A DNA stretch of 64,000 nt from Octopus vulgaris (lineage: Eukaryota): the NCBI GenBank assembly GCA_951406725.2, contig OX597833.1:8804001-8868000 (forward strand), read 5' to 3'. The position numbers were made by a program, and so were the translations under genes. Positions 6,410-39,239 of this stretch are shown in pieces. The notes below the pieces were generated by a model, which was not told the origin of the DNA, did not search any database, and worked only from the letters and a program-made list of their open reading frames with translations. The stretch's first letter is position 1. Each line of letters opens with the position of its first letter.

Positions 6410-6539
6410 TATCCATATATATGTTAGGAATGGCCATAATAGGACATTCGACTCACTAGAAAGAGCAGTTAAACTCCAAACCACTAATAGTTGTAATTCT
6501 GAAATGGAAAGAGAAATAAAAACGTTTACCCCCTCCTAT

Positions 6540-9026: not shown

Positions 9027-9153
9027 ATCTCTGAAGAGGCCTTGGGATATTTTTGTAAGTGTCTCATTTATAACCACATATTAACTTATCACACATGGCT
9101 AATATGAGCATAATGACATACCCATATCTGCATGGCTGAAACAGCTGTAAGAT
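9027..9153 (+). ncRNA. Hammerhead ribozyme motif with extended stem II
   Basis: AUCU-CUGAAGA-GGCC...GGCU-GAAA-CAGCUG-UA-AGAU. Confidence 0.7.
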
Positions 9154-9522
9154 GTACTTTATATTTATATTTATTTATATTTACTTATGCATATTGTACT
9201 TATTGTATAATATTACTCATTGATGTACATTGTTTTGTTCTATACTATTATGTTTGACCTTAATGTTCATATGTAGTGGTTTAATAAATTATGTGATTGG
9301 GTATTATCTTGTTGTTGATTATTGATTAAGGTGTATTTCTCCATTTTCTTATTTTGTATTATTAATTTGTGGTAAAACATTTTACCTTTGCCCATATAAT
9401 ACAGTAAATCAATTAATTGCATCACAATTCTTAACATTTATGTATTAAGTTTGTTGGGTGCTTTACTGGCAGAATATTGGATATATGTTATCCCATGGAG
9501 GGTTATACTCACAACCCCTATC

Positions 9523-9568
<46 letters not shown>

Positions 9569-10927: not shown

Positions 10928-11216
10928 AAAAGTGAAACTACATTTAAAATTGTTTTGACAACTTGTAACTTCTTTCGAGAAGTTTCCAGCTTTGAAAAAC
11001 ACTTCAACACATTCCAGCTGTGAAGAATCTACACAAAACTTAGACTAAACTTCTTCTGTCGTCTAATTTGTAGAATTTATTTCACTGACAGAAACTAAGA
11101 AGGATAAAAAAGAAAGAGAAAGAAACGTTTGAACTGTTTCCCGTTTCATTTCCTTATTTCCTCGCTGTTAACCTGATTCCATCAAAGTCTTTCTTCGCAC
11201 TTGTCCGCTTTATAAA
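10928..11216 (+). promoter_or_regulatory. Putative promoter of copy 2 with IRF/ISRE-like motifs and TATA box
   Basis: AAAAGTGAAACT at 10928-10939, GAAAGAGAAAGAAAC at 11112-11126, GTTTCCCGTTTCATTTCC at 11136-11153, and TATAAA at 11211, 35 nt before the ATG. Confidence 0.5.
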
Positions 11217-11245
11217 TTCTTTCCTGACACAACTTCAGCGACGAG

Positions 11246-11287
11246 ATGGAAACAGACTTCCTTCGACAAATGGTCAACTTGACACTC
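11246..11287 (+). CDS. Predicted coding exon 1 of TPR-TIR copy 2 (METDFLRQMVNLTL)
   Basis: ATG in gagATGg context, 14 codons, then canonical donor GTAAGT at 11288. Phase 0 joins in frame to the acceptor at 16160. The exon is conserved at 23445. Confidence 0.7.
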
Positions 11288-11542
11288 GTAAGTATAGAAT
11301 CAATCATTCAATCAATCAATTTATATCGGTTATTGTTCACAACTTGTTTCAAATGGCATACATTACGATTATAAGGATTTTGTGGCTAAAATCTTTTCCA
11401 AGGGGGTGGCGAGATGACTTCGGAAGATTCACAAGATCCGAGTTTCTCCCTCATAACTGTAGATATGTGTGTGTGTGTGTGTATATATGTGTGTGTATGG
11501 GTGTGTATATATATGTATATAATATATATATGTATATATAAA

Positions 11543-11630
<88 letters not shown>

Positions 11631-11914
11631 ATGTATGTATGTATGTATATGAAAAGAGTAATATTGTCTCAGAGAAACAAAAGGGTTTATAGGACTGTAA
11701 AAGAAATGCTCAAATATAAATGAGTCGAAGATAAGCTGTTCTATTTGTATTATATTTGGATATATATATATTTTTTACATTTTCTGCTTTTCTGTATACG
11801 TTATATTTCTTTTGTGTTTGTAGACCACGGGGTTTTATATGATTAAATGTTTGAGGGGTCATGTTGTATGGAAAGTCGACCCAAAATTAATGTTTGTTCT
11901 ATAACTAATGCTTC

Positions 11915-13425
11915 TGTAGCAATATCGTTACACTCATTGCCGCTGCATGTATATATGGTCAGTAAATATTAATGGGATCGCATGCGATTGTATTCCCTAT
12001 ACGATACGAACGCATGTGATCCTATTTTTATACTGGTGACCCCCTTTAATACGCAGCCATTCTGATATACTGCGCGGCCGACGGTAAACATAAGTTACGG
12101 AATTGACACAAGAGAACGCTGAAGAAGGAACTTTTTAAGAAAAAAAAAAAATATATATATATATATATAATAATATCAATTTTATCGCCGTTTTATCGTC
12201 TGGCAAGAGGCTATATGTAGCAATATCGTTACACTCAATGCGATCTTCACTGTTTGAGAAGAGTATTAAGAATAATCTCGTTCGAGATTACAAACATCTT
12301 CGGCTAGTTTAACATTGTTGTAAACACTAATTCTATTGGCTGACACGTGGTCTCTACTACGTTCGCACCGCTGGTTGTCACGTGACGCGATTTGCCTCCG
12401 CTTATTTTCGCGCCATTGTTCCAAGCAGCCAATCACAGCTTTCCATTTCTGAAGTTCGTTTTGAGCCTCATAAACCTTACATAAAGAAGGGTTCTCAGAC
12501 AAATATTCGTCTTTGGTTCAAGTCCTTCTCAGGGCGAACCTCTGACCACAGAATCCGTCTTTGGTTCAAGTCCTTCTCAGGGCGAACCTCTGACCACAGA
12601 GTTCGTCTTTGGTTCAAGTCCTTCTCAGGGCGAACCTCTGACCACACAGAGTTCGTCTTAGGTTTCTAGTCCTTCTCAGGGCTAACCTCTGACCACAGAG
12701 CTCGTCTTTGGTTCAAGTCCTTCTCAGGGCGAACCTCTGACCACACAGAGCATACCAACTATGTTCCAGTTCGAACGGCAGGCGACCATCATTATATCAA
12801 GAGAAAAATAACCAAGCAGAATATATGATGAAGACGCAGCAAAAACCAAGCAACAGACGCAACTCATCGCCGAACATCGAAGATTTAATTTCTACACAAG
12901 ACAACTACAGATTCAACTATAGCGGTTAGGTGAAAATCTCACCACGGGAAAAACGGCTACAGTTAACACATCTGGAAGTATATTCATATCAAGAGAAAGA
13001 TAAACACAAGTGATTCAATTAATCTCAACTACGAGACGCAACATCTTGATATGGAACTCTTACCCTCCGTGTACCTCATAAACGGTAAATCAATTATCTG
13101 TTTTGAGTTCTAGTTCTTCTAAGAACTACCTTAAGCTATCTGCTACTACCTGTTGCTAGGCTGATACCAACAACAGGAACTGTGAACCAAATTCCATTGT
13201 TATTTCTCTGGTCAGTACCTTTTATGCCTCACGAACACACAACACAAAAACATGCTAACACTTACAAACTTCCAACCAACGTGATTGTAAAATATGTAAA
13301 ATAAATAATGTATATATCTCAAAAAGAAATCTTGTTGTCATTCCACTTGTGTTCTATTGCCGCTGTATGGCCACGTGCGACCGTGTCTCCTATACGATAC
13401 GACCGCATGTGAGCCTATTTTTATA
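11915..13425 (+). mobile_element. Non-autonomous LTR element: internally deleted 5' LTR (11915-12032), PBS-like site, ~180-bp interior, 3' LTR (12216-13425)
   Basis: Both repeats start TGTAGCAATATCGTTACACTCA and end cgcatgtga.cctatttttata. TGGTGACCCC lies at 12034. A 4-bp flanking duplication CTTC sits at 11911-11914 and 13426-13429. Confidence 0.75.
12506..12750 (+). repeat. Five tandem 48-50-bp units inside the LTR
   Basis: Unit ttcgtctttGGTTCAAGTCCttctcagggcgaacctctgaccacagag, with no unique spacers. Confidence 0.95.
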
Positions 13426-13467
13426 CTTCTTTATATATATATGTATGTATATAGATGTATGTATGTA

Positions 13468-13567
<100 letters not shown>

Positions 13568-13975
13568 TAGATAGATAGATATATATATAGAGAGAGAGAA
13601 AGTAATAACGAGTGAATGAGAACCACGGAAGGGTTTAAAAAGCGGGAAAATAATTGAAGATAAAATAAAACGAAATAGGGAGCCAAAACATTAAACATTA
13701 TGGTTAATGTTTACATCGCCCCCTATTATTGAAAGTGGGTAGAAATAAAAAGTAAATTAAAATTTCATTTAACCCCCCACCCCCCACCCCGTTTTCCTAA
13801 AAGTTATGAGGGAAAACCTCGGATCTTGTGAATTTTCCCAGCTCCCCTCCACACACTCCTCTTCCTTTGCGCGCATTTTTTCTCTCATATTCGCTTCCTA
13901 CACATATTTTTACAGCCGTTGCACTATTTTTTTCTTATTTTTGTTTTCGGGTCAAGTTGTACACATTAACCCGTT

Positions 13976-14505
13976 AATCCGTTAATTCTTGGAAAATGTA
14001 ACAAAGTTAACGTTAATCCGTTTACGGTAACTTTTATTGTCAAAGGCATAACTACAGTTTAATACCCCACCGATTTTGTTGCCACGTAACTTCCAGAAAA
14101 GTGGATACTTTTTAACTAAACTTTCACCAAATAATCCTGAAGATTAAGTGTGTGTAATAGATTTGTTTGAAAACATTTCCGAGGGGTTAGAGAGAGGAGT
14201 TTCGGAAAATTCACAGGACCCGACATTTTCCCGTCAACATACAGTTTCACACCTGTAGCATGTCTGTATTAGCTTTAGTTAAAACATGCATTTCTGGACT
14301 TCAAGGTGGGCTCAAGTGACACTGTCAGTTTACAGTTTTACTCAGTCTGTGATTTGGCTGAATTCACTCGCTTCCTCGGACAGTCGTTCTCTGTTATGTC
14401 CGCATTCCATCCAGTTCCTTGACTTCCTCGCTTCACTTTCAAGGGACACCCGGGATGCTGTTTTCTTCCAACGCCGTTTATGATGGCCTTTCTCACACAA
14501 GAACA
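13976..14505 (+). repeat. ~530-bp intronic segment present in inverted orientation at 24142-24671
   Basis: aatccgttaattcttggaaaatg...cacacaagaaca is the reverse complement of 24142-24671. Confidence 0.92.
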
Positions 14506-15444
14506 TTCTTAATGTTTATATCCTGGCCCAGAAATGAAAATCCCCCCAAAGGACTACTGGAATGGGTGTAAAAAAATGTGTAGGAAATGTTGCCAAGCAA
14601 CGTGAGGGTGGGGAGAGGACTTCGGGAAATTCACGAGATCCAGGTTTTTCGCTCGTAACTTTCAGGAAATTGGGAGGGTTTTCTTTCAATGAAATTTTAT
14701 ATATAAATACCTTTCCAACGGCATACATTATGATTGTAAAGTAATTTGAGGGGGAAATCTTGAGGTGGAGAGAGGAATTTCGAAAGTTCCCACGATCCGA
14801 ATAATTCCTCGTTCTAATCCGAAATCACATTCAACTTTCTACAGATACCCTACTATACTACATAGTGTTTATTTCTACCCACTTTCAATAATTTTGAATG
14901 TTTTGGCTTCAATTTTGCACAATTGTTTTCCTTACTCGATGTTCTGAAAACTATACTTTCTACCATTCCACATGCACTCCAATCTCGCACACGTTCACTG
15001 TATATTTCTTAGTTTTCTCCACTTGCATTTTCTCTTTTACTCACTTTCCCTAGATCCTCCTTTTCTTCAGAAACTCTTTAGGTGGGGAATATTGTGAGTG
15101 ACCATTTCCTCCTGTGGTTACTCAAGATTAGAAACCGAATCCACATACCTGTTGCTTGTCACATGGTTGTCTCATCCTTTCTGTTTTATTAAATTGTGTA
15201 AATTGCTGTTTTACACCTTATTTTAGAGATGTCAAAGAACAGACGAGAAAATTTTTGTAGACATTTGAGGATTTGACAGGTGTAAACAATATTGGTTTCA
15301 AACATTGGTACAAGGGAAAAGTCGATTGCATTGACCCCAATGTTCAACTGGTACCTTTTAATCAACCGCAAAAGGATAAAAGGCAAAGTCAACCTTGGTG
15401 GAATACAGGTATAAGTAATATTTCTGCATGAAATCAAATTCGAT

Positions 15445-15810
15445 GACTGGCATCCGTGCTAGTGGGGTGCAAAGAGCACCATCCGTGCTAGTGGGGTGCA
15501 AAGAGCACCATCCGAGTGTGATCGTTGCCAGAGCAGCCAACTGGCTTCCATGCTGGTGGCACGTAAAGGGCACCATCGAGCGTGATCGTTACCAGTGTCG
15601 CCTTACTGGCACCTGTGCCGGTGGCACATAAAAAGCACGCACTACACTCTCGGAGGGGTTGGCGTTAGGAAGGTATCCAGCTGTAGAAACTCTGCCAGAT
15701 CAAGATTGGAACCTGGTGCAGCCATCTGGTTCGCCAGCCCTCAGTCAAAATCGTCCAACCCATGCTAGCATGGAACACGGACGTTAAACGATGATGACGA
15801 TGATGATGAC
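15445..15810 (+). mobile_element. SINE-like repeat with (GAT)n tail
   Basis: Paralog of 2945-3370. Confidence 0.75.
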
Positions 15811-15972
15811 AATTAGAAGAGGCGAAGGGAAACATGTTGTCGTTATCTTCATTGCAGGGAAAAGAAGCAGCAGGTTACATTACAAAAAGAAAAGAGAAGC
15901 AAAGTCTATTCCAGGTGGAGACCATTTCCCTTACCAGAATGTGAACATCTTTTCTTTCAATTACTTTTACTT

Positions 15973-16016
<44 letters not shown>

Positions 16017-16159
16017 CACCTTTACTCCTCCCCACCCCATCTATCTTCCCCTCTCCCCCTCTCATGCCTCTCTAGCAGTTAATCTCACTTGTATAATGAC
16101 AATATTAATACAGTGGGATGTAACACAGGTTTAACATTTTTTTTCTTTTCTTTACCCAG

Positions 16160-18333
16160 GACTCTGATGAAAAAATAAAATTTTACAGGATAAAAGTTGA
16201 AGAATTTCCAAACATGCTGGAAGAATGTTTTAACCTTAAAGTGAATGCACTTAAGGCCAAGTTGCAAAAAGTTGAAAATGCCTTAAGAAATGAGATTTTG
16301 CTTGATTTACAAGAAGAAATTTGCAACCAACATGCTAAAGTCTTCCTCCTTTGGACTTTACATGAGCAAATATTGGCCAAGGAAATCTCCATTGAAATAC
16401 TGGGAAAAGATCCGGATAACTTGTTGGCATTAACAAACCAAGCGTTAATGTTCGTGCATTATGAAAATTTCCCTGAAGTCGATAGAGTGCTGGACAAACT
16501 GAACACTTTAAAAAGCAGCCCCAATTTCCCTTCATTGGAAGCGAGAGGTAAAGCTGAAATTGCCTATTGCATTTCTAGAATATCTTTTCACCATTATCAA
16601 CGTGCCATTGAACTTTTCAAAGAAGCTCTTCAGGTTTGCCCAAACAATTACTTTTGGCTTTTTCGCCTGGCTCTGCTAATTTATCGCAGGATGAGGATAT
16701 TATATGATAAAGAAAAGAGAGAAAAATCTTCAAAGGAAGCTACTGAAATTCTTCAAAGAATTACTTCTAATTATCCTTGTTATGTTAATGATCATCTAAT
16801 GGCTCAAACATTGGTTCTGCTAGGCTCTCTTGAAAATTATCCGTTTCTTCATAAACGTACTCCAAGAACAATTGAATATTTCCAGAGAGCTTGTAGTATG
16901 TTTCCTCAAGACCGATTTGTAATGGAAAAAAGTGCTACTTTCTATAAATCAATAGATAAGTATGAAGATGCACAGAAATTGCTAGAGGAAGCCATTAAAA
17001 GAAATGAGACCTCACTTTCACATCATCATCTTGGTACTATTTATAAAGATAAAATTCCTGAATACAAAGATTTGTGCGTTAAAGAATTACCCTTCTCCAA
17101 TTGTGAAACAGAAGAACTAAAAGAATTAAAAGTAGAAAAACGAATATTAAAATGTCCTGAGAGAATACCTGATATTGAAAGAAATGAAAATGTGGATAAG
17201 GCTGAATACCATTTTAAAAGAGCTTACAGTCTGGATCCTCAGAATATACCTGTCATGTATGACCTAGCCTTGTTATACAGAAGTGTGCGCGAATATGAAA
17301 ATGCGATGAAATGTTTTGAAGATATTGACTTTTCAGTTTTGAACATTTGGGACACAATCAAATACTTCATTCAATATGGAAAATTTTGTTTTTTTCTGGC
17401 TGACAAAAAAGAAAGTGAAGAAGAGAAACAAGATTTAATAGATGTTGGTACGGATATGTTTGTCTGTGCCATCAATCATTTATCTGAGATTCTGGTGCTC
17501 AATAAAAGACAGAAAGAAATTTGGGAAATCAAAAAGATAATGGAAGGAATTTATAACTTTGCTGACACCGAATACAAAAGTAATCTAATGAAATTAATTC
17601 AGTCTATAAAAGAATTGCCTGATGAGGGGGAATTTTCCCAAAACTTCTCAAAGAATGCGGTGGAAATGAACTTTCACAAAAATTACGATTGTTATGCCGA
17701 CAGGAGGAATTTCAACAAGCTTTTCTCCATTTAGAGTTTTCTGGTTGTCAACAAAGTGAAATTGATGTAGACCTGAGGAAAACAATTTATCTTCAATATG
17801 CTAAAGAGTTCTATGGAAAGAGACAGAAGGTAGCTACGATAATTTTCAAAAAATATTACAAACTTTGCTTTGGCCATTCCCAAGAATCTGAACACAAAGC
17901 ATGTACTGTTGGCTCATCAAAGATTCCTTTTTTTCAATATGATGTCTACATTTTAACATCCAAAAGTGATAATGGTGATGCTAAACATCTAGCAGAGAGT
18001 TTGGTGACATATTTTGGATTGCAAACTAGCTACGGAGACTCTGATTTCACTCTAGGAATAGGAAAAATGGTAAATGTTAATAAAGTAATGGAAGACAGCT
18101 GCCATATTGGAATCTTTTATTCCAAGGATATTTTATCTGAAACGAAATATGCCGTGGAAATTATGAAAGATCGAAAACTGAAAACTGGAAAGATTTTTCT
18201 GATAAACAGCAATAACAGTTCTGAGATAGCCAAACATTTACAAAGTTTTCCTAATGTCGACTACAAGAACAAGAACAACATAGAACTGTTAAGACTCTTT
18301 GAATTGCTTTGTTCTTCAGAGAAAGATAGATAG
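16160..18333 (+). pseudogene. TPR-TIR gene copy 2, main coding exon; single -1 frameshift near 17628
   Basis: Acceptor AG at 16158-16159. ORFs 16214-17734 and 17689-18333 match copy 3. Copy 2 reads gatgagggggaatt against gacgagggaggaatt in copy 3. Confidence 0.85.
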
Positions 18334-18791
18334 ATGGATGGATGGAATGGAGGACGGACGGACGGACGGACGGATTGACGAACAGATGGATGGATAGGTG
18401 GATGCATGCATACATATATACATATATACTCTTTTCCCTTGAGTTTTCTCTTGTACTCCATCACTACTAACTTTATTATCTTCTTCCCAGCTACTCACAC
18501 CCTGATATGAGGCAGCCATGTATCTCTTCTATAGCAAAACTCCTGTGCAGGTGGCATATAAAAAGCACCATTTGAGCATGGCTGTTGCCAGTACCGCCAG
18601 ACCGGCCCTTGTGCTGGTGGCACGTAAAAGCACCCACTACACTCTCGGAGTGGTTGGCCTTAGAAAGGGCATCAAGCTGTAGAAACTCTGCCAGATCAGA
18701 TTGGAGCCTGGTGCAACCATCTTGTTTGCCAGTCCTCAGTCAAATCGTTCAACGCATGCTAACATGGAAAGCGGATGTTAAATGATGATGA

Positions 18792-18826
<35 letters not shown>

Positions 18827-18956
18827 TATCTATATATATGTTAGGAATGGCCATAATAGGACATTCAACTCACTAGAAAGAGCAGTTAAACTCCAAACCA
18901 CTAATAGTTGTAATTCTGAAATGGAAAGAGAAATAAAAACGTTTACCCTCTCCTAT

Positions 18957-19031
18957 CTGGACTATGCATAGTTTCGGCAATCTTTAGTAAATAAATTAAA
19001 TTTATTTACAACTGGCGTGCCTCTTCAGCAG
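18957..19031 (-). ncRNA. Hammerhead ribozyme motif, paralog of 6540-6614
   Basis: Identical core and stems. Confidence 0.75.
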
Positions 19032-21431
19032 AAAACTAAGGACTGCCATATAGTCACGAAGCAATAATAACCATGCTTTGAGTCTATATGCTATAACTTT
19101 TCAAAATCCACCATGTGCATCAATGAGTAATATGATACAATATGTAGGGTGTACATTGGTGCGACTAAAAATAGTATGAAACAACGACTAAACTATCATA
19201 GATACACTTTTAAAAATAAAAATAGGATGAATTCTACGGGGTTAAGTACTTATATTTGGGAACTTAAGAGCAAGAATATAGATTTTGACTTAAATTGGAA
19301 AATACTCACTTCCGCACCAGTATATAATAATAGAAATTAAAAATGCTCTTTATTGTTCATCATCAAGGCTGGCCTACCCATTATTAATAATATTAATGAG
19401 CGGAATTAATTTTGCCTTCACAGACTAGCGTATACCTTCTCTAGATTTAAATAGCACCTAGTTTTTATACCAGTAATTTTTTAACATTTTTCTATATCGG
19501 ATTGTGCTCTTGGACATTATAATTTATAATTTTATATCTCCATATATGTGTTCTGTATTGATTGTTTTTGTCTCGGCTTGAAAATATATTGAAATATATA
19601 TGTATATTCTGATATATACATGGTATTTTGATCTTCATGGAGTTTTCCATTGGTGTTGGGTATATTTACTTATATATTTACTTATATATTTACATATATA
19701 TATATTTACTTATATTTTGTGTGTATGTATATGTATATATATGTATATGTTTATGTGTAGGTGTATGTATTAGTCTACGCATACATGTGTATACGTATGT
19801 TGATATATGTGATTGTATATATATATATGTATATATATATATCTTCCTAGTAAGCTTTCCCATGTATTTGTTTGGCAGTTTTATATATTGAGTTCTCTTT
19901 GTATACGTCTAAATTTGTATTTTATTTTATCATTTTTTTAAATTTAATTTTTTTTCTTCTTCTTTATTATTACTATTATTATTATTTTATTTTATTTTAT
20001 TTTTTATTCATTATTTATTATTTATTTTTTTTATCTTTTATTTATATTTTTTTAGTTACAGGCACCTATTAATTTATAATTAATTTAATTTATATCTTAC
20101 ATTTTATATTTAATAACACTTTCTGTATATTGTATATGTGTTTATATGTCCTTCGGTTGTTTGGTTATGAATGTATATATATGCAAAGCTGTGGGCAGAC
20201 TTGTATATCTGTAATTTCGTACGTATATGTGGATATGTCTACATATGTTCATGTGTATATGTATATATATATGCATATGTATATATATATTCATGGGTGG
20301 ATATATGTGTATATGTTTCTTTTTATATATATATCAATACATATATGAGTGTGTATGTATGTATATGCAAATGTTTGCGGATGCAGTGCATGCGAGTGTA
20401 TATATGTATATGGCTGTGTGCGGGGGGGAGGGTATGTATGTTGGTGCAGTTTTCCTATGCCTATGCTTGTTTATTAGGGAAGGTTCGAGTGGGGACACAG
20501 TCGAAATTGTGTTTATCTGGAAGGTTTCACAGCACGATAAATGTTTACGAAATTTGTGGTGTAATTTCAATTATGTATCTTATGCTAATAACGTACTTCG
20601 ACTGAGTATGGGTGTCTGTTTGCATGCATGTATGTATATTTATGGATATATGTGAGTAGTTGTGTATGTAAACATATATGTGTGTATGTAAGCTTGTATT
20701 TCCTGTATTGTGATTTATCCATGTATATATGTGTAAGCGCACATATACGTGTGTACGTCTGTAAGTATTTCTTAACAAACCAACCGTAACGAAGACAATT
20801 GAAATTCAAATGTGCCGCCCAATCGTATTGGGCGTTCGATCTTTAGCTATCTCTGAACTTAATACTTTACACATATCACAGTCAAAATTATGGCTGGCAC
20901 CCGTGTATACGCTTGTGCACCTGTGAAATTTGCTATGATGTAAATTAATGTTTTTCTTTTTTCATTTTTATGGTACTGTATTATTGTTGTTGTTGTTTTT
21001 GCTATTATGTTGCTAACCGCGTGATGCATATATTGTTTTGCTGGTATTAATGTTAATGTTACTAATAATAACAATAATGATATTAGTAGCAATAGTGGCA
21101 ATGATAATGGTAATGATGCTAATATTAATGACATTTTGTAACTTAATATAATGAACTCTTGACTTTGTATATCTGCATTTGAATATGAATATGTGTATGT
21201 TTGTATATTGTAATATTCTAATATATTGTTTTGAACAACTGTAACCTTGAATATAGAACATATGTATGTATATTGCTGTATATTATTATGTATATGTATA
21301 ATCATATATATATAGGAGTATGGGTATATGCACTCATATGTATGTGTATATTATATATTATGGGTATGTACCCACTCTTGTATGGGTGTACCTCCTCTGA
21401 TTTTCATATTTAATTTAGTTTGTACTTCATA

Positions 21432-21558
21432 ATCTCTGAAGAGGCCTTGGGATATTTTTGTAAGTGTCTCATTTATAATCACATATTAACTTATCACACA
21501 TGGCTAATATGAGCATTATGAGATACCCATATCTGCATGGCTGAAACAGCTGTAAGAT
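21432..21558 (+). ncRNA. Hammerhead ribozyme motif, paralog of 9027-9153
   Basis: Same core and stems. Confidence 0.7.
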
Positions 21559-21927
21559 GTACTTTATATTTATATTTATTTATATTTACTTATGCATATT
21601 GTACTTATTGTATAATATTACTCATTGATGTACATTGTTTTGTTCTATACTATTATGTTTGACCTTAATGTTCATATGTAGTGGTTTAATAAATTATGTG
21701 ATTGGGTATTATCTGGTAGTTGATTATTGATTAAGGTGTATTTCTCCATTTTCTTATTTTGTATTATTAATTTGTGGTAAAACATTTTACCTTTGCCCAT
21801 ATAATACAGTAAATAAATTAATTGCATCACAATTCTTAACATTTATGTATTAAGTTTGTTGGGTGCTTTACTGGCAGAATATTGGATATATGTTATCCCA
21901 TGGAGGGTTACACTCACAACCCCTATC

Positions 21928-21987
<60 letters not shown>

Positions 21988-22999
21988 TAGTAAATCCAAA
22001 CAAAGAAGAACAAACAAGAAAAAACAATGATGCGAGGACGTGGTACAAGTCCTGTCTTATCAGACGCTCAGGAAACGAAGGAAAGGGGTTTTAACGTTTC
22101 GAGCCTTGCTCTTCTTCAGAAATAGAAGAAAGAAGGGAAAACACAAGAAGAAAATCACCACCGATACCCACGTGGTTAAGACAGCAGAGTGCAAGAGAAG
22201 GAGACGTGTGTGTGTGTGTGTGCGCAGGTCTGTGTGTGTAATAATAGCACGTGTATGTGTGTGAGTGTGTGTGGTTTTGGTTTATGTGTGTGTGTGTGTG
22301 TGTGTGTGAGAGTGGACTTTGTGTCAATATCGTAGGAAGAATTTATGGTAAGAATATTAGGTCGGAGTTTTTTTGTGTGTGTGTCCCTTCACATGCGCTG
22401 AGGAGAATGATCAGTAGAAAGGTGTTTACCTGGTAGTTTGAAGTATGTGTGTGTCTGTGTGTGTGTGTATATGTATATGTTGTGTGTGTGTTTTGTATGC
22501 TTGTTTATGTGTATGCATTGGGTTGTGTGTGGAGTTGTCTGGAGCAAATGTGCATTACTCTGTGTGTGTGTGTGCATGTATGTATAATTGTGTGCGTGTA
22601 TGTATGAGTGTGTATGGCAGGTATGTGTGGGTTCATTTGTCTATGTGTATGTGCGCGTGGGTGTATGTGTGTGTGTATTTTTTCGTGTGTGTGTGTATGT
22701 ATGTGTGCGTGTATACAGAAATAAAATAAAAAATAAATTATAATAAGGTTGATAGGGGATAAAGAAGAAGAAGTTGATACGATATAAAGTGGAGCAATTA
22801 AAAACAAAAATGAAATAAAGTTGCTTTGTTAGGTCTGTCGTTCTTCGTTATTTCTGTAATAAAAATAGTTTTGAATGATTTCTGTGCGAGTGTATGATAT
22901 GGGTGCGTGTGTATGTGTGTGAGAGAGCAAGAGCGAGAATTTCATTAAAAACTGCCCATTTTCCTGCAAGTTATAATGATTCGTGTGAATTTTCTGAAA

Positions 23000-25628: not shown

Positions 25629-26976
25629 GTATAAAGATGGCGCTGAACTAACAACAAGTGTGTTAACGTCTCTCTCCTAAACATTAAACAAGTCCTTCCA
25701 GAGATCGATGTTATCAGAAGCGAAATTGTCTGCAAAGCGAATATAAGTGAAAGTACAACAAGTCACTGTATTTGAGAAGAATATTTTCGCTTTTGATATA
25801 GTGTTTTGTAACTAGAACATACTCGCGAATACACGTGTTAAAACGCACGTGTGTTACTTTCCCGAAATTGAAGTGAATTTTATTCTTCGTCTGTGAATCA
25901 ACAAGACACAGGATATTTTCGTTTTTGATGTATATCTGCGTGTTCTGAAAAAAGCCTCTGAAAAATTTGCTGCTTAATACCAAATCGCTTAGGGAAATAC
26001 AGAAAGTATTCCTCAATCTGTTGCACGTGCTAAATCGAAACTCAAATCCCTTTTGTTTACAAAGTGCGCTTGGGGAAAAAAAGGTCTGTCTTGTCTATCT
26101 ATCTTCCTTTCTCATAAAAAGGAATCGCGTAAGTACTCTCTCTCAGCCGGTAAGGTAAGGAAAAAAAAAATATTACTTATTTTGTTATCATTAGTGTTCT
26201 TTCAAACAGAAAATAATAATATATCTATGTGTATGTATATGTGTGTGTTAGAAGTATAGCCGCAATTATTTTTAGAAGACATTGTTTTAGCGACGGACAA
26301 ATGTATATCTTCTTTTCTCTTTTTCTCTGCTTAAATTCTGTAAAATCTCTATGTGTATGTATATGTGTGTGTTAAAAGTATAGTCACAATTAGTTTTTAT
26401 TTTAGAATACATTGTCTGTAGCGACAAATACATATTTTCTTTTCTCTTTTTCTCTGCTTAAATTCTGTAAAATCTCTTGGATTGTTTTCTTTCAGCTATT
26501 TCATTATTATTATTATTGTTTCTTTATATACTCACTTGGTACTACTGTTTATATATGTGCATGTGCACACGTGTGTATATGTGTGTATGTGTATGTATGT
26601 ATACGCGTGTGTGTGTGTGTACAAATAGCTTCGCTTAGAATTCTCCCCTCTCTTTTTCTCTGCTTAAATTCTGTAAAATCTCTATGTGTATGTATATGTG
26701 TGTGTTAAAAGTATAGTCGCAATTAGTTTTTATTTTTTATTTTAGAATACATTGTCTGTAGCGACAAATACATATTTTCTTTTCTCTTTTTCTCTGCTTA
26801 AATTCTGTAAAATCTCTTGGATTGTTTTCTTTCAGCTATTTCATTATTATTATTATTGTTTCTTTATATACTCACTTGATACTACTGTTTATATATGTGC
26901 GTGTGCACACATGTGTATATGTGTATGTATGTATACGCGTGTGTGTGTGTGTACAAATAGCTTCGCTTAGAATTCT

Positions 26977-27013
<37 letters not shown>

Positions 27014-27667
27014 TCAGTTTCTCTCACTCACGCTTCTCCTTGTCTCTTCATAGCTCTCATTCTATCTTACTCCCCTCTTTCAAATATATAAATTCTCTCT
27101 ATATTTCTTCCTTCTCTCCCTATCTCTTCAGTTTCTCTCCCGCTTCTCTTTGTCTCTCCATTACTCTCTTCTATCTCTTCAGTTTCTCTCCCGCTTCTCC
27201 TTGTCTCTCCATTTCTCTCTTCTAACTTACTCTCCTCTCTCGGATACATATAAGGACATAGACGCTTTCTCTCTCTTCCTTCAGCTCTCGGTCTCTCCTC
27301 TTCCTCTTCTCTCTTACTCTCGGCTCCCAATTTCTTCTTAAGTACATAGACGCTCCCTTTCTCTTCTAACTTACTCTCCTCTCTCGGATACATATAAGGA
27401 CATAGACGCTTTCTCTCTCTTCCTTCAGCTCTCAGTCTCTCCTCTTCCTCTTCTCTCTTACTCTCGGCTCCCAATTTCTCCTTAAGTACATAGACGCTCC
27501 CTTTCTCTACTTTCTCCCTACCCCCCTATTGCACTATTAGATTAATATAAATTAATATAATATAATATAATATAATTCCTCCCTTCCTCACAATCACAAT
27601 CTCTTCCTCTCTCCTCCCTTCTCCCTTTTTCCCTCACAGCTTCTCTCTCTCTCCCCGCTACAACGGA

Positions 27668-28603
27668 ATGGACAACATGCAAAAATTAGAGGTGAATGCA
27701 AACACTGGCGTCAACAAAAGCCAGCGTAACTGGACGAAAGTAGAGCTGGAAGTTTTCATCAGAGGATGGAGCTCGGCCGACAGATCGCAACCAACTAAAA
27801 ACATAGCGGCGACCCTGAAAAGCCATGGCTTTATGAGGACGTTGGCGCAAGTAGAGAGGAAGAAAAGAGAAGTCGAAAGGGCCTACACTCTCATTGCACC
27901 ACACATGGCTTTGCTAAGCCAAGTCCTCAAGGTGGACAAAGACAAAGAGAGAGAGATGGAAACAGGAAACACCAACCACAGAGTGTCAAAAAATGACACG
28001 CCCACTGCCACAGTCGAAGAAGGCAAGCAGGGCAAACAACAGATAGGCGGCGATGGGGAAACAGAAAATAACCACCCGGATGAAAAGACCTATGCAGAAA
28101 GGAACCAGTGGACAACCGTCCAACGGAGGAAGAAAAAACAGAGAGGAACTGGGGACAAGAAAACCCAGATAACATGCAAATTCTTCCGGAATGGAACCTG
28201 CTGGCATGGAGAAACAGGGGAAGGATGCAGGTTCGCTCATCCCAGGCCCTATGGAAATTGCATCAAACCCACTCGACCAAAATGCCTTAACCAAAACCAG
28301 AACAAATACAAGCTGCCCCAGAAATATGCAGACATAGTGCGTAATGCCCCAACAAGGAGAAGGCGCACATTTGCAGAGGAAATGCAGACGGCGGCAGCAG
28401 AACAAAGAAATTTTGTGGAAATGGCAGAGAAAATTGTGGGACAACTGGCCTGGATACATCGTCTTCAGAGCCAGGGGCACTCACAACAGCACTCAAGACC
28501 ACCACAATCAAGGGACCCAGGGTGGCCACCGCTGACGCCGGCCCAGGTGCCACACCGTCAGCCTTTATTGACACCCCGGGTGTCTCACCAGTGCTTCTGC
28601 TGA
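27668..28603 (+). CDS. LINE A ORF1: Myb/SANT-like N-terminus plus CCCH zinc finger
   Basis: NWTKVELEVFIRGW...IAATLKSHGFMRTLAQVERKKREV (trihelix/SANT-like) and CKFFRNGTCWHGETGEGCRFAH (C-x7-C-x8-C-x3-H). Homologous to 55104-56000. Confidence 0.8.
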   Translation: MDNMQKLEVNANTGVNKSQRNWTKVELEVFIRGWSSADRSQPTKNIAATLKSHGFMRTLAQVERKKREVERAYTLIAPHMALLSQVLKVDKDKEREMETGNTNHRVSKNDTPTATVEEGKQGKQQIGGDGETENNHPDEKTYAERNQWTTVQRRKKKQRGTGDKKTQITCKFFRNGTCWHGETGEGCRFAHPRPYGNCIKPTRPKCLNQNQNKYKLPQKYADIVRNAPTRRRRTFAEEMQTAAAEQRNFVEMAEKIVGQLAWIHRLQSQGHSQQHSRPPQSRDPGWPPLTPAQVPHRQPLLTPRVSHQCFC

Positions 28604-31545
28604 ATGTCAGAGGTCTGGTGAAACCCACTAATATGGGTAAAATTCCTTACCTTAGGGACTTGAGCACAAGCAACCATGCAATATGCATAGCGCTGACTGA
28701 AACGCACCTGTCAAGCAGTATAGCAGATGCAGAAATACACATACCGAAGTATACTGTTTTTCGGTCGGACAGGAAGGAAAGAACTCATGGTGGGGTTGCC
28801 CTGTACGTCCGTGAAGATGTCACACCCATAATACTGTTGACACACTCAAACTCAGTCTGTGATACACTGATAGTACACATGAAACAACCGAAAATAGTAA
28901 TATGTGTCACATATCGGCCACCAGACACCCCTAGTCATGAAGGAGTGTTTGAAGATAGCCTCAGAAGAATAGAAGAAGTCCTGGACAAACTGGACCAGGG
29001 TAACACCATTCTACTGCTGGGAGATTTTAACCTTCCGAAAGTCAAATGGCCAGATGGCCATCTCCTCCCTGGAATGACATCACTTGAACAGAGACAGACA
29101 GAGTCCTTGTTGGCTCTCACACGCAAGTTTTTCATGGAGCAAGCAGTGCTTTGGCCAACAAGAGGTGAGAATGTCTTGGACCTCTGTTTCACAAGCAACC
29201 TGATGCTCATCCACAACATAATGGTAACACCAACAATTCTCTCAGATCACAACTTAGTAGAGGTAATGATATATGGTATGAGAGAGTTAGTTGAGACGCA
29301 GCCATTAGAAAATACCACAGGCCTATCCAGTCTAAACTTCCATAAGGCAAACTGGAAGAAGATCAACGAAGAGATCCGAAAACATGACTGGAGTGACTTC
29401 ATCACCACACAAGACACCAACACACATTTCCAACATTTCATGACAACAATACAGAACATATGCCATAAGTTTGTCCCGGAGAAAAAAGCCAGCGGGCATA
29501 GGAACGTTATTCCCAGAGACAGGAAAATACTTATGAGGCGAAGAGCTAAGCTCTCGAAGCAACTAAATGCACGGCAGAGAAACAATGAGGGACTCCACCT
29601 GAAACTTTTTGAAACGGAAACTGCACTCAAACTTTCCTATGAGAAGGAGAGGGCAGAGAGAGAAGCCAGGGCCATAGAGAATATTAAAACAAACCCTAAA
29701 GCCTTCTTTAAATTTGCGAAAGAAACCACCTCGGTACACTGCAAGATTGGCCCACTCTTTGATAAAAAGGGCTCTCTAACTGAGGACCCCCAAGGGATAA
29801 GTGAAATACTAAAGGAACAGTATAAAAGTGTGTTCACATCCCCTCTGGGGCACATGCAAATCACAAACCCAGAAGTTTTCTTTGATGCCACAACACTCCA
29901 AAACCAAACAACAACCATCGACCACATAGACATAACAGAGAGGGATGTAATATCTGCCATAGAAGAAATGAGAATAAATTCAGCTGCTGGACCAGATGGA
30001 TTCCCAGCAGTCCTCCTAAAAACATGCAGGCATGCCCTAGCGGGACCACTGAAGAAGCTCTTCAGTGGTTCCTTGGCTAACGGTAAACTACCCAGGGCGC
30101 TAAAAGAAGGCACCATATGCCCTATCCACAAAGGAGGGAGTAGAGCAGAGGCCAAAAACTACAGGCCAGTCTCCCTGACGTCACACATAAGTAAGGTCAT
30201 GGAACGAATCATCAGAAAAAAACTCATCACGTTCCTCGAAGAAACTAACCGTCTCACTGACACACAGCATGGCTTTCGCCCAGGAAGAAGCTGCCTTACG
30301 CAGCTGTTACAACACTACGACTGGGTACTGAAACAACTACTGGATCGCTCACAGGTGGATGTGGTATATCTCGACTTTGCGAAGGCCTTTGACAAAGTCG
30401 ACCACGGAGTGATATGTCACAAATTACTCAGACTCGGCATAACAGGAAAAGTAGGTGAGTGGATACATGACTTCCTGAAGGACAGAAGCCAGATGGTTGC
30501 AGCCAATGGAGCCCTCTCGGGAAAGACACCAATAGCAAGCGGGGTGCCACAGGGCACAGTCTTGGGACCCTTGCTGTTTTTGGTGGCGCTCTCTGACATG
30601 CCCTTGGTAGCACAAACAACATCCCTCACTAGCTATGCTGATGACACAAAGGTGGCACAGGCAATCAAAAACCCAGCTGATGCTGACCTTTTACAACAAG
30701 ATCTGGATGCCATATACAAATGGGCTGAAGACAACAACATGCAATTTAATGCTGGTAAATTTCAAGCCTTACAATATCAAGCTGTAAACACATATACATT
30801 ACAACACAACTATACTGGTCCAGGAGGGATCGAAATCCCAGTATCGAAATCAATACGGGACCTGGGGATAGACATGAGTGACGATGCATCTTTTTCTTCA
30901 CACATCGCGAAGGTGGCGACAATGTGCAGACGACTCACTGGCTGGATCCTGAGGACATTCCGGACAAGAGACTGCGAGACCATGTTGACACTATGGAGGA
31001 CATTTGTCCTAAGCCGCCTGGACTACTGCTCCCAACTGTGGTCACCGCATAGTGTCAAACTAACCACAGAGCTTGAGACAATCCAAAGACATTTCACCAA
31101 GAGGATTTCCACCATGAAAGAAAAGAACTATTGGGAGAGGCTTAGGGAACTCAATTTGTACTCCTTGGAACGAAGACGAGAGAGATATGCAGTGATATAC
31201 ATATGGAAAATCCTGGAGGGACTAGCACCAAATTTTGGAATTGAGAGCTGTTCCAATCCCCGTACAGGACGTCACTGTGTGGTGCCAAAGGTCCCGTCTT
31301 CCACATCCAGGGTAAGGAGCAGATACTGTAATAGCCTGGGGTTCAGGGGCCCTCAGCTGTTCAACAAACTGCCAAGAAAACTAAGAGATCTACATGATGC
31401 GGATGTGGACATTTTCAAAAAACATCTAGACAAGCTGCTTTCCGGGATCCCAGATGAACCCACTGCAAGGTACGAAGGTAACCTAAGGGCAGCAGCTACA
31501 AACTCTCTCTTAGATCAGTGGCCAGCCACGGCAAACTGGACTTAG
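28522..31545 (+). CDS. LINE A ORF2: AP endonuclease plus reverse transcriptase
   Basis: Motifs [51 protein letters not shown] and YADD. 1007 aa uninterrupted, opening on GTG. Confidence 0.95.
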
Positions 31546-31610
31546 AGAGGGTAGCAACAAGGGCGGTGCCCCAGCATGGCCTCAGCCGGATGGCTGAAAC
31601 AAGTAAAAGA

Positions 31611-31710
<100 letters not shown>

Positions 31711-33971: not shown

Positions 33972-35223
33972 CAATTGTTTTCCTTCCTCGATGTTCTGAA
34001 AACTATACTTTCTACAGATACCCTACTATACTACATAGTGTTTATTTCTACCCACTTTCAATAATTTTGAATGTTTTGGCTTCAATTTTGCACAATTGTT
34101 TTCCTTCCTCGATGTTCTGAAACCTATACTTTCTACAGATACCCTACTATACTACATAGTGTTTATTTCTACCCACTTTCAATAATTTTGAATGTTTTGG
34201 CTTCAATTTTGCACAATTGTTTTCCTTCCTCGATGTTCTGAAACCTATACTTTCTACAGATACCCTACTATACTACATAGTGTTTATTTCTACCCACTTT
34301 CAATAATTTTGAATGTTTTGGCTTCAATTTTGCACAATTGTTTTCCTTACTCGATGTTCTGAAACCTATACTTTCTACAGATACCCTACTATACTACATA
34401 GTGTTTATTTCTACCCACTTTCAATAATTTTGAATGTTTTGGCTTCAATTTTGCACAATTGTTTTCCTTCCTCGATGTTCTGAAACCTATACTTTCTACA
34501 GATACCCTACTATACTACATAGTGTTTATTTCTACCCACTTTCAATAATTTTGAATGTTTTGGCTTCAATTTTGCACAATTGTTTTCCTTCCTCGATGTT
34601 CTGAAACCTATACTTTCTACAGATACCCTACTATACTACATAGTGTTTATTTCTACCCACTTTCAATAATTTTGAATGTTTTGGCTTCAGTTTTGCACAA
34701 TTGTTTTCCTTCCTCGATGTTCTGAAACCTATACTTTCTACAGATACCCTACTATACTACATAGTGTTTATTTCTACCCACTTTCAATAATTTTGAATGT
34801 TTTGGCTTCAATTTTGCACAATTGTTTTCCTTCCTCGATGTTCTGAAACCTATACTTTCTACAGATACCCTACTATACTACATAGTGTTTATTTCTACCC
34901 ACTTTCAATAATTTTGAATGTTTTGGCTTCAATTTTGCACAATTGTTTTCCTTCCTCGATGTTCTGAAACCTATACTTTCTACAGATACCCTACTATACT
35001 ACATAGTGTTTATTTCTACCCACTTTCAATAATTTTGAATGTTTTGCTTCAATTTTGCACAATTGTTTTCCTTCCTCGATGTTCTGAAACCTATACTTTC
35101 TACAGATACCCTACTATACTACATAGTGTTTATTTCTACCCACTTTCAATAATTTTGAATGTTTTGGCTTCAATTTTGCACAATTGTTTTCCTTCCTAAT
35201 GTTCTGAAACCTATACTTTCTAC
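33972..35223 (+). repeat. 121-bp tandem satellite, ~10 copies
   Basis: tctacagataccc recurs at 34011, 34132, 34253, 34374, 34495 and so on to 35099. Confidence 0.97.
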
Positions 35224-35701
35224 CATTCCACATGCACTCCAATCTCGCACACGTTCACTGTATATTTCTTAGTTTTCTCCACTTGCATTTTCTCTTTTAC
35301 TCACTTTCCCTAGATCCTCCTTTTCTTCAGAAACTCTTTACGTCGGGAATATTGTGAGTGACCATTTCCTCCTGTGGTTACTCAAGATTGGAAACCGAAT
35401 CCACATACCTGTTGCTTATCACATGGTTGTCTCATCCTTTCTGTTTTATTAAATTGTGTAAATTGCTGTTTTACACCTTATTTTAGAGATGTCAAACAAC
35501 AGACGAGAAAATTTTTGTAGACATTTGAGGATTTGACAGGTGTAAACAATATTGGTTTCAGACATTGGTACAAGGGAGAAGTCGATTGCATTGACCCCAA
35601 TGTTCAACTGGTACTTTTTAATCAACCGCGAAAGGATAAAAGGCAAAGTCAACCTTGGTGGAATACAGGTATAAGTAATATTTCTGCATGAAATCAAATT
35701 C

Positions 35702-36043
35702 GATGACTGGCATCCATGCTAGCGGGGTGCAAAGAGCACCATCCGAGTGTGATCGTTGCCAGAGCAGCCAACTGGCTTCCATGCTGGTGGCACGTAAAGG
35801 GCACCATTCGAGCGTGATCGTTACCAGTGTCGCCTTACTGGCACCTGTGCCGGTGGAACATAAAAAGCACGCACTACACTCTCGGAGGGGTTGGCATTAG
35901 GAAGGGTATCCAGCTGTAGAAACTCTGCCAGATCAAGATTGGAGCCTGGTGCAGCCATCTGGTTCACCAGCCCTCAGTCAAAATCGTCCAACCCATGCTA
36001 GCAAGGAACACGGACGTTAAACGATGATGATGATGATGATGAC
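35702..36043 (+). mobile_element. SINE-like repeat with (GAT)n tail
   Basis: Paralog of 2945-3370. Confidence 0.75.
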
Positions 36044-36205
36044 AATTAGAAGAGGCGAAGGGAAACATTTTGTCGTTATCTTCATTGCAGGGAAAAGAAG
36101 CAGCAGGTTACATTACAAAAAGAAAAGAGAGGCAAAATCTATTCCAGGTGGAGACCATTTCTCTACCAGAATGTGAACATCTTTTCTTTCAATTGCTTTT
36201 ACTTG

Positions 36206-36248
<43 letters not shown>

Positions 36249-36390
36249 ACCACCTTTACTCCCCCCCCCCATCTATCTTCCCCTCTCCCCCTCTCATGCC
36301 TCTCTAGCAGTTAATCTCACTTGTATAATGACAATATTAATACAGTGGGATGTAACACAGGTTTAACATTTTTTTCTTTTCTTTACCCAG

Positions 36391-38568
36391 GACTCTGATG
36401 AAAAAATAAAATTTTACAGGATAAAAGTTGAAGAATTTCCAAACATGCTGGAAGAATGTTTTAACCTTAAAGTGAATGCACTTAAGGCCAAGTTGCAAAA
36501 AGTTGAAAATGCCTTAAGAAATGAGATTTTGCTTGATTTACAAGAAGAAATTTGCAACCAACATGCTAAAGTCTTCCTCCTTTGGACTTTACATGAGCAA
36601 ATATTGGCCAAGGAAATCTCCATTGAAATACTGGGAAAAGATCCGGATAACTTGTTGGCATTAACAAACCAAGCGTTAATATTCGTGCATTATGAAAATT
36701 TCCCTGAAGTCGATAGAGTGCTGGACAAACTGAACACTTTAAAAAGCAGCCCCAATTTCCCTTCATTGGAAGCAAGAGGTAAAGCTGAAATTGCCTTTTG
36801 CATTTCTAGAATATCTTTTCACCATTATCAACGTGCCATTGAACTTTTCAAAGAAGCTCTTCAGGTTTGCCCAAACAATTACTTTTGGCTTTTTCGCCTG
36901 GCTCTGCTAATTTATCGTAGGATGAGGATATTATATGATAAAGAAAAGATAGAAAAATCTTCAAAGGAAGCTACTGAAATTCTTCAAAGAATTACTTCTA
37001 ATTATCCTTGTTATGTTAATGATCATCTAATGGCTAAAACTTTGGCTTTGCTAGGCTCTCTTGAAAATCATCCATTTCTTCATAAACGTACTCCAAGAAC
37101 AATTGAATATTTCCAGAGGGCTTGTAGTATGTTTCCCCAAGACCGATTTGTAATGGAAAAAAGTGCTACTTTCTATTTATCGATAGGTAAGTATGAAGAT
37201 GCACAGAAATTGCTAGAGGAAGCCATTAAAAGAAATGAGACCTCACTTTCACATCATCGTCTTGGTACTATTTATAAAAATCAAATTCCTGAATACAAAG
37301 ATTTGTGCGTTAAAGAATTACCCTTCTCCAATTGTGAAACACAAGAACTAAAAGAATTAAAAGTAGAAAAACGAACATTAAAATGTCCTGAGAGAATACC
37401 TGATATTGAAAGAAATGAAAATGTGGATAAGGCTGAATACCATCTTAAAAAAGCTTACAGTCTGGATCCTCGGAATATACCTGTCATGTATGACCTAGCC
37501 TTGTTATACAGAAGTGTGCGCGAATATGAAAATGCGATGAAATGTTTTGAAGATATTGACTTTTCACTTATGAACGTTTGGGACACCAAAATCAAATACT
37601 TCATTCAATATGGAAAATTTTGTTTTTTTCTGGCTGACAAAAAAGAAAGTGAAGAAGAGAAACAAGATTTAATAGATGTTGGTACGGATATGTTTGTCTG
37701 TGCCATCAATCATTTATCTGAGATTCTGGTGCTCAATAAAAGACAGAAAGAAATTTGGGAAATCAAAAAGATAATGGAAGGAATTTATAACTTTGCTGAC
37801 ACCGAATACAAAAGTAATCTAATGAAATTAATTCAGTCTATAAAAGAATTGCCTGACGAGGGAGGAATTTTCCCAAAACTTCTCAAAGAATGCGGTGGAA
37901 ATGAACTTTCACAAAAATTACGATTGTTATGTCGACAGGAGGAATTTCAACAAGCTTTTCTCCATTTAGAGTTTTCTGGTTGTCAACAAAGTGAAATTGA
38001 TGTCGACCTGAGGAAAACAATTTATCTTCAATATGCTAAAGAGTTCTATGGAAAGAGACAGAAGGTAGCTACGATAATTTTCAAAAAATATTACAAACTT
38101 TGCTTTGGCCATTCCCAAGAATCTGAACACAAAGCAAGTACTGTTGGCTCATCAAAGATTCCTTTTTTTCAATATGATGTCTACATTTTAACATCCAAAA
38201 GTGATAATGGTGATGCTAAACATCTAGCAGAGAGTTTGGTGACATATTTTGGATTGCAAACTAGCTACGGAGACTCTGATTTCACTCTAGGAATAGGAAA
38301 AATGGTAAATGTTAATAAAGTAATGGAAGACAGCTGCCATATTGGAATCTTTTATTCCAAGGATATTTTATCTGAAACGAAATATGCCGTGGAAATTATG
38401 AAAAACCGAAAACTGAAAACTGGAAAGATTTTTCTGATAAACAGCAATAACAGTTCTGAGATAGCCAAACATTTACAAAGTTTTCCTAATGTCGACTACA
38501 AGAACAAGAACAACATAGAACTGTTAAGACTCTTTGAATTGCTTTGTTCTTCAGAGAAAGATAGATAG
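36391..38568 (+). CDS. TPR-TIR gene copy 3, intact main exon (~739-aa spliced protein): IFIT/TTC22-like TPR array plus C-terminal TIR-like domain
   Basis: Uninterrupted 707-aa ORF plus 18 upstream in-frame codons. TPR-like helices include YQRAIELFKEALQVCPNN, YEDAQKLLEEAIKRNE and AEYHLKKAYSLDPRNIPVMYDLALLY. The C-terminus YDVYILTS...FGLQTSYGDSDFTLG...VMEDSCHIGIFYSKDIL resembles TIR box1/box2/betaC. Confidence 0.9.
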   Translation, partial: DSDEKIKFYRIKVEEFPNMLEECFNLKVNALKAKLQKVENALRNEILLDLQEEICNQHAKVFLLWTLHEQILAKEISIEILGKDPDNLLALTNQALIFVHYENFPEVDRVLDKLNTLKSSPNFPSLEARGKAEIAFCISRISFHHYQRAIELFKEALQVCPNNYFWLFRLALLIYRRMRILYDKEKIEKSSKEATEILQRITSNYPCYVNDHLMAKTLALLGSLENHPFLHKRTPRTIEYFQRACSMFPQDRFVMEKSATFYLSIGKYEDAQKLLEEAIKRNETSLSHHRLGTIYKNQIPEYKDLCVKELPFSNCETQELKELKVEKRTLKCPERIPDIERNENVDKAEYHLKKAYSLDPRNIPVMYDLALLYRSVREYENAMKCFEDIDFSLMNVWDTKIKYFIQYGKFCFFLADKKESEEEKQDLIDVGTDMFVCAINHLSEILVLNKRQKEIWEIKKIMEGIYNFADTEYKSNLMKLIQSIKELPDEGGIFPKLLKECGGNELSQKLRLLCRQEEFQQAFLHLEFSGCQQSEIDVDLRKTIYLQYAKEFYGKRQKVATIIFKKYYKLCFGHSQESEHKASTVGSSKIPFFQYDVYILTSKSDNGDAKHLAESLVTYFGLQTSYGDSDFTLGIGKMVNVNKVMEDSCHIGIFYSKDILSETKYAVEIMKNRKLKTGKIFLINSNNSSEIAKHLQSFPNVDYKNKNNIELLRLFELLCSSEKDR

Positions 38569-39239
38569 ATGGATGGATGGAAGGAATGGAGGACGGACGG
38601 ACGGATTGACGAACAGATGGATGGATAGGTGGATGCATGCATACATATATACATATATACTCTTTTCCCTTGTGTTTTCTCTTGTACTCCATCACTACTA
38701 ACTTTATTATCTTCTTCCCAGCTACTCACACCCGGATATGAGGCAGCCATGTATCTCTTCTATAGCAAAACACTTATAATTGTCCTCCAGTCATAGTTTA
38801 ACACTTCCCCCATCTCAAATACTTACCATTAGTTAAGGGTTCTTTTACCTTTCCTTTTTCTGTCTTGCACGTTATTTGGTAATGGAACGAGCTGCCAGGA
38901 CATTCAATAAAGGGATTGGCATACATATTAGGCAACTTGATGTAGTTGTGTGTGCTACCTGACATTGGAGCGTGATGCCGACCTGTGGCTTGCAGGAACT
39001 GGTCAAACCATCCAACCCATGCCAGCATGGAAAACAGATGTTAAATGATGGTGGTGGTTATGATGATGATGATGATGATTACACATGCACACACACACAC
39101 ATTGACTGGATCTTAAGATGATTTTATCTCATATGATGCAAGCTAAATCTGAATCTAAACAACTTCAGCCATTATGTTACTCCAAGTATCAGTGTACCAC
39201 ATCACCTGATTTCCTCATTTTATATGTTTTAATGTTACT

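Follow-up and report, generated by a model that had tools for sequence, protein, structure and literature searches.

Three distantly related LINE families of Octopus vulgaris, designated here A, B and C, share an almost identical front end. Full-length copies of A and B lie in the window (the whole stretch of 64,000 nucleotides analysed here), and their comparison with copies from the rest of the genome makes it probable that the 5' module of family B was recently captured by C and then, together with the C UTR, by A. Both recipients survive with older heads too.

LINE elements of the window and their common 5' module

Element A (25634-31611, plus strand) is a full-length LINE of subfamily A1, inserted in a TA tract and apparently composed of a B head, a C UTR and an A body. 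It opens with AAGATGGCG (25634-25642), the first nucleotides of a 5' module (25634-26221) that probably derives from family B. At the B-C joint (AATAATAA[TA]TATCT) the two parts overlap by two nucleotides of TA microhomology (26220-26221) within an AT-rich tract. A pyrimidine-rich, putatively C-derived UTR body with simple repeats follows (26222-27577), in which the window copy carries a 340-bp tandem duplication (26316-26993) absent from the other A1 copies checked. The C-A joint (27577/27578) directly follows an (ATAAT)n tract and has no overlap. Behind it come what appears to be a stub of A's own older UTR (27578-27667), common to subfamily A0, then ORF1 (27668-28603, 311 aa), ORF2 (28633-31545, 970 aa, AP endonuclease and reverse transcriptase) and the 3' end (31568-31611), where a GCCCCAGCATGGCC motif common to A, B and C precedes a family-specific short repeat tail.

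Element B (52071-57669, minus strand) is a full-length member of the presumed donor lineage and lies in TA arrays. Its module (57094-57669), delimited by BLASTN alignment and taken as native to family B from the module tree, is followed by a pyrimidine-rich B-specific UTR body (56001-57093), ORF1 (55104-56000, 298 aa) and ORF2 (52147-55158, 1003 aa). Directly downstream, on the same strand, lies a 5'-truncated copy of the C/D clade (48473-51797, 5' end approximate), whose ORF2 (48561-51557, 998 aa) belongs to D, the sister subfamily of C. A short 5'-truncated C/D-clade copy is found at 58474-59341 (minus strand). A more divergent endonuclease-RT LINE (61400-64000) starts immediately beyond a 2-kb TA array and is cut by the window's end.

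BLASTN aligns 25634-26217 (plus) with 57669-57094 (minus) at 92.5% identity over 590 columns, gaps counted; with gaps excluded, 545 of 568 aligned bases are identical (96%). The local alignment score is 972, the maximum in 30 block shuffles being 41, and AAGATGGCG opens both copies immediately 3' of a TA tract. Past the module, comparison of the A-type with the B-type UTR gives a score of 58, which is the level of shuffled sequence (mean 55, maximum 69), so these remainders are not alignable; the sole exception is an internal repeat of the last 40 nt of the module in B (56963-56924). The proteins have diverged at many residues, with 43% amino-acid identity in ORF1 and 65% in ORF2. For the A and B ORF2s dS is 1.87, near saturation at silent sites, and only 40% of four-fold sites are identical. 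Across all three TA-targeting families the ORF2 proteins are 65-73% identical and ORF2 dS ranges from 1.1 to 2.3, whereas the module is 96-97% identical. Evidently, the 5' similarity of A and B is far younger than their ORFs. The first-pass annotation had described a nearly base-for-base match with a common start at the TA junction, followed by unalignable UTRs and divergent ORFs, and all of this is borne out; the agreement between 5' and silent-site identity which would have spoken against its idea of a recent exchange is absent.

The same annotation listed a solo degenerate piece of the module at 43550-44260. This piece consists of module positions ~239-585 together with the following A/C-type UTR and is therefore not a solo module. 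We list it as a scrambled A1-type UTR fragment (43631-44260, minus strand), holding the 3' part of the module and C-type UTR; its perfect blocks are split by many indels (403 of 484 positions identical, 64 gaps). A similar patchwork of perfect blocks and indels occurs in copy L140, in which the module is mixed with a B 3' end. Both may be assembly artefacts.

The module is likely the internal promoter of family B, since full-length copies begin at one motif (48 exact 19-mer module starts in the genome), its CpG content is raised over that of the window (observed/expected 1.23 in the B copy against 0.55) and both chimeras spread after the capture. With 35% GC it is not a GC-rich CpG island. The CAAGATGGC motif of mammalian L1 type is present at its 5' terminus and is, by identity to the YY1 motif that opens mammalian L1 (PMC5381506), a putative YY1 site. 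The base preceding the motif is C in 24 of 51 starts examined. In three copies (L049, L051 and L063) the opening nucleotides of the element recur as short repeats in the TA flank upstream of its true start, which might reflect more than one attempt at 5' joining.

The ATG inside the YY1-type motif opens a five-codon frame at the extreme 5' end (25636-25653). The UTRs contain 5-22 upstream ATGs each and their 3' ends are pyrimidine-rich, so translation of ORF1 may require reinitiation or internal entry.

Elements A, B and C are not L1. Their ORF2s match Pfam RVT_1 and Exo_endo_phos above cut-off, domains common to many LINE clades; human L1 ORF2p aligns to residues 220-783 of 1003 only, at 95 bits, while relatives lacking clade names match over half the protein at about 510 bits or more. 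A poly(A) tail is absent, and the tails are family-specific tandem repeats of 4-8 nt. An ORF2 with APE and RT and a short tandem-repeat 3' tail are features of the CR1 group, the tail being a CR1 trait. The three families accordingly look CR1-like, a label that leans, beside the tail, on C-terminal motifs which we take to be typical of CR1; the 120 listed ORF2 relatives bear no clade names. An ORF1 of L1 type (Transposase_22) is absent by Pfam, and the described CR1-group types (esterase, PHD, RRM/CCHC) gave no Pfam match at E<=0.1. As ORF1 is variable in the CR1 group, the lack of a known type does not exclude membership.

Instead, ORF1 of both A and B shows a Myb/SANT-like N-terminus and one CCCH zinc finger, matched below Pfam cut-offs and conserved between the two. 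Only four database relatives of ORF1 were found, all named Octopus, and Atlas gave no usable match for it. It is possibly an undescribed ORF1 type; the study of ORF1 shuffling in CR1/L2 elements (PMC4120745) contains none of the terms CCCH, Myb or SANT. Near the ORF1 end, about 72 nt (55213-55285) are 87.5% identical between B and C, the rest of ORF1 being barely alignable, and contigs from other families join B at this place only. The segment could be an RNA signal or a crossover point.

Apart from LINEs, the window holds three copies, 96-98% identical, of a segment that carries an intronless TPR-repeat gene (3010-22976 and 35095-38771). One copy (36445-38568) is open for 707 aa, and its two counterparts are either split or shortened. 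The C-terminus of this gene presumably resembles a TIR domain, for which Pfam gave no match there. A tandem array at 33972-35223 comprises 10.4 copies of a 121-bp unit, 99% identical.

Module copies in the genome and the probable order of transfer

Besides the window copies, 55 module loci were fetched from the genome. The module is followed by B in 32 of them, by A in 12 and by C in seven, so that 51 lead into LINE ORFs of these families; two continue into a broken C-type UTR and two reach contig ends. A solo module with its own 3' end was found at none of the 55 (two being cut by contig ends). A search for the module-end pattern listed 77 places with two continuations only, 49 of B type and 28 of C type. 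Of 39 C-tether ends, 29 lead to C and 10 to A.

These counts bear on the proposal, also made in the first-pass annotation, that the module is a separately mobile unit. An independent SINE- or MITE-like element, before or behind which LINEs land, could account for the two copies without ORFs of their own, for an extra 250-nt head fragment in L072 and for the window fragment at 43631-44260. However, both ORF-less copies enter the C-type UTR for 250-730 nt before it breaks off, the 77 module ends have just two continuations, and the ageing of the module parallels that of B ORF2. We regard such an element as barely credible.

Most C copies and subfamily A0 open with an unrelated TTCCGG head. These older heads begin (AC)TTCCGG(T/C)T, which we take to be ETS-like, and cannot be aligned with the module except for one 22-nt match. 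Twenty A copies were selected by ORF1, with enrichment for a different upstream frame, and 14 of them have only the last 82-91 nt of the UTR in common with A1; their ORF2 differs from that of A1 by 0.7% on average. Complete A0 heads (L131, L133) begin ATTTCCGGTT. Among 40 C copies chosen by ORF1 start, at places not already found via the module, none has the module; C heads, where present, and D heads begin ACTTCCGG. Of 20 older B copies selected by ORF1, eight have a module that has aged to 72-84% identity, and no other head type was seen among these 20. Taken over the 90 copies with a recognisable head, the module is found in 36 of 36 B copies, most of which were sampled through the module itself, in 6 of 31 C/D copies, the other 25 being ETS-type, and in 16 of 23 A copies, one of these labels (L140, a scrambled head separated by TA) being spurious.

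The UTRs of A1 and of C1, the form of C that bears the module (C0 being the form with the older head), are 91-95% identical over about 1.4 kb, nearly their whole length. This near-complete sharing is what resolves the A UTR into module, C-type body and a stub of about 90 nt. The copy closest to the A1 UTR body belongs to C1 (L047, 97.8% over 360 nt). The suggested recent exchange of 5' ends between families is supported, but it would have run through the third family C and not directly between A and B; likewise, the module is indeed shared, yet what A received would be a hybrid UTR of about 1.6 kb and not merely the ~600 bp first noted.

On the ORF2 tree, built from 90 of 134 rows with the 44 headless ones left out, UTR type is non-monophyletic. 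Within each recombinant family the breakpoint is sharp and common to the copies. The module occurs at every depth of B, the six C1 copies nest within 25 C/D copies with ETS heads, and the A copies fall into two sets, 16 labelled as module-bearing and seven A0. In the module tree, from which L140 and five short modules were left out, the age ladder of B reappears, with A1 and C1 standing at the young end. In AU tests, which left out six near-identical or noisy rows, holding together the 24 non-oldest B rows without A1 and C1 was rejected (p-AU 2.7e-5), as was holding together the 25 ETS-headed C/D rows without C1 (p-AU 0.009), both groups having been named after the trees were seen. Holding together all 28 B modules against A1 and C1 was not rejected (p-AU 0.23), and as such an unrooted split cannot show nesting, the direction rests on rooting with the old B copies. 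Both trees, the AU tests and the closeness of the A1 body to L047 give good support to a transfer order of B to C1 to A1.

ORF2 distances within groups are 0.3-1.2% and very young copies are present in all three families. With a rate of 0.0036 per site per million years, borrowed from PMC13282606, both swaps would roughly fall within the last few million years. Some modules are mosaic: four G variants are common to A1 and young B and absent from C1 and mid-age B, and one B copy (L041) carries C1/A1 alleles. Recombination inside the module is weakly supported (p 0.033). These patterns hint at later homologous exchange among the shared modules.

A common front end might also have been inherited, as a promoter or first exon that selection preserved in the three lineages, with the remaining UTR as an intron. 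Several points favour this: the module ends about 60 nt past a donor-like GGTAAG, acceptor-like tracts precede ORF1 in A and B, and UTRs of lizard L1 are conserved across divergent families (PMC5381506). Yet the module drifts to 72-84% within B alone, so conservation cannot account for 96% identity across a dS of 1.9. Furthermore, other heads exist in A and C, and the family junctions lie away from GT/AG sites. We consider this explanation very improbable. As for a 5' UTR intron as such, contigs of four runs, whose RNA status is a guess, span the B UTR, and a donor-to-acceptor joint is absent from the five joints listed; contigs drop rare forms, and the rejection of this candidate is therefore provisional.

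Junctions and possible routes of capture

Both joints of element A lie in AT-rich tracts resembling the TA sites that these LINEs target. Of 76 3' flanks, 66 are TA-rich and the remaining ten are short AT sites. Fifteen apparent 5' truncations lie in TA tracts, and seven of them show TA microhomology of at least 2 nt, with 15% expected; at least two rows of this small set (L128, L145) are doubtful, and the set was drawn from 67 apparent 5' ends, most of which are alignment breaks at internal duplications. Because insertion at TA sites, the AT-rich joints and these truncations point in the same direction, we tentatively favour nested insertion as the route of each capture, and put it somewhat below an even chance. 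A recipient cDNA truncated at its 5' end would join an AT-rich stretch resembling the target, located within a genomic copy of the donor UTR; transcription from the donor promoter would then pass through the intact recipient, and the resulting chimera would spread as a new subfamily. In this manner the head of family B would first have been joined onto the C UTR, giving C1, and the hybrid UTR of B head and C body would later have been joined onto A, giving A1. Against this route stands the C-A junction, which has no microhomology. Founder nests were not found either: an A tail before a C start occurs in none of 43 cases, and a C tail before a B site in none of 100 among the sites listed (100 of 103).

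The same relay could have proceeded by template switching, reverse transcriptase passing from recipient RNA to donor RNA while insertion took place at AT-rich landing sites. The very young copies in every family suggest that RNAs of A, B and C coexisted, the mosaic modules and the lack of a founder nest agree with this route, and most cases in mouse L1 are consistent with it (PMC3600994). On the other hand, junction homology is just 2 and 0 nt, and the joints are in target-like tracts. In addition, the stem of the A1 module (0.015) exceeds the ORF2 distance between A1 and A0 (0.003-0.007), as if an aged genomic copy had been captured, which an unsampled transcribed copy would also fit. On balance we find template switching doubtful. 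Quite unlikely, in our opinion, is a deletion at the DNA level between same-strand neighbours in one TA array, fusing an upstream head to a downstream body. Such an event would leave no nest, in agreement with the founder-nest results, and in 5 of the 33 full-length copies a relative on the same strand lies no more than 2.5 kb downstream, the arrangement of B and the C/D copy in the window. But a loss of about 5 kb ending within two UTRs would be needed twice, and the observed neighbours are mostly short 5'-truncated pieces.

If nested insertion is the route, TA targeting might turn AT-rich UTR tracts into docking sites for promoters, making capture by nested insertion a built-in and repeated process. 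Heads would then toggle between YY1 and ETS types, the two 5' motifs that vertebrate L1s also use, with the YY1 head sweeping across long-split lineages against the promoter-niche rule. We offer this wider reading as an unlikely, though conceivable, extension.

Comparison with known cases of UTR exchange

Acquisition of promoters by LINEs has been argued mostly from mammalian L1, with donors often unknown. Recruitment of 5' UTRs is already known in mammalian L1 and in tobacco RTE LINEs, and the octopus families appear to add a genuine instance of 5' UTR capture, resolved in detail. A search of published papers returned no report of UTR recruitment in CR1-like invertebrate LINEs or between such divergent lineages, and no description of these families. 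Thirteen recently active CR1 families with 787 insertions have been reported in Octopus vulgaris (PMC13282606). They may include A, B and C, which the repeat library deposited with that study, or its supplement, may contain; the available text of the paper describes no family structures, UTRs or chimeras. The three families are not described in the available text of PMC5786205 and PMC9115989 either, and the scope of PMC13343379 is vertebrates only.

Close in kind is the tobacco SolRTE (10.1101/2022.11.04.512097), which likewise combines conserved bodies with exchangeable 5' UTRs. One chimeric SolRTE UTR was assembled in several steps, and the same candidate mechanisms were discussed. SolRTE belongs, however, to the RTE clade of plants, the switching takes place among variants of one subfamily, and donors are partly unknown. 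In octopus, the presumed donor, the intermediate, the final chimera and both pre-swap forms coexist in one genome, with junctions placed at nucleotide level. For CR1/L2 elements, it was proposed, speculatively, that a 5'-truncated LINE inside another LINE gives rise to a hybrid (PMC4120745); that proposal concerns ORF1 and ORF2, whereas the octopus swap concerns the UTR, with the same nested-insertion route being favoured.

As in mouse and primate L1 (PMC3600994, PMC5381506), octopus copies with the same UTR type do not form one clade on the ORF2 tree, and, as with the F type of mouse L1, heads pass between simultaneously active families (PMC3600994). The octopus module opens with CAAGATGGCG, as most mammalian L1s do, while the older octopus heads resemble the starts of zebrafish (GGACTTCCGGTT) and lizard clade 1 L1, with a match to the sequence GACTTCCGGT with which these L1s begin; the zebrafish motif was named an XrpFI site (PMC5381506). 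Replacement of UTRs is reported there as almost absent from L1 of non-mammalian vertebrates. Unlike mammalian L1, the octopus elements have an AT-rich head and are not L1 at all, so that UTR turnover would be extended to an invertebrate, non-L1 group. Exchange in mammalian L1 involves members of one ladder-like lineage, whereas in octopus it crosses lineages with ORF2 dS of 1.1-1.9.

The pairs A1/A0 and C1/C0, in which the ORF2s of the forms with and without the swap are as much as 99% identical, are natural matched pairs for the effects of a swap on tissue of expression, strength and silencing. Long co-existing L1 lineages are reported to differ in their promoters (PMC3600994), whereas A1 and C1 are young and may not have coexisted for long. 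In octopus, three young but diverged lineages have one head in common, an outcome not predicted by the promoter-niche idea.
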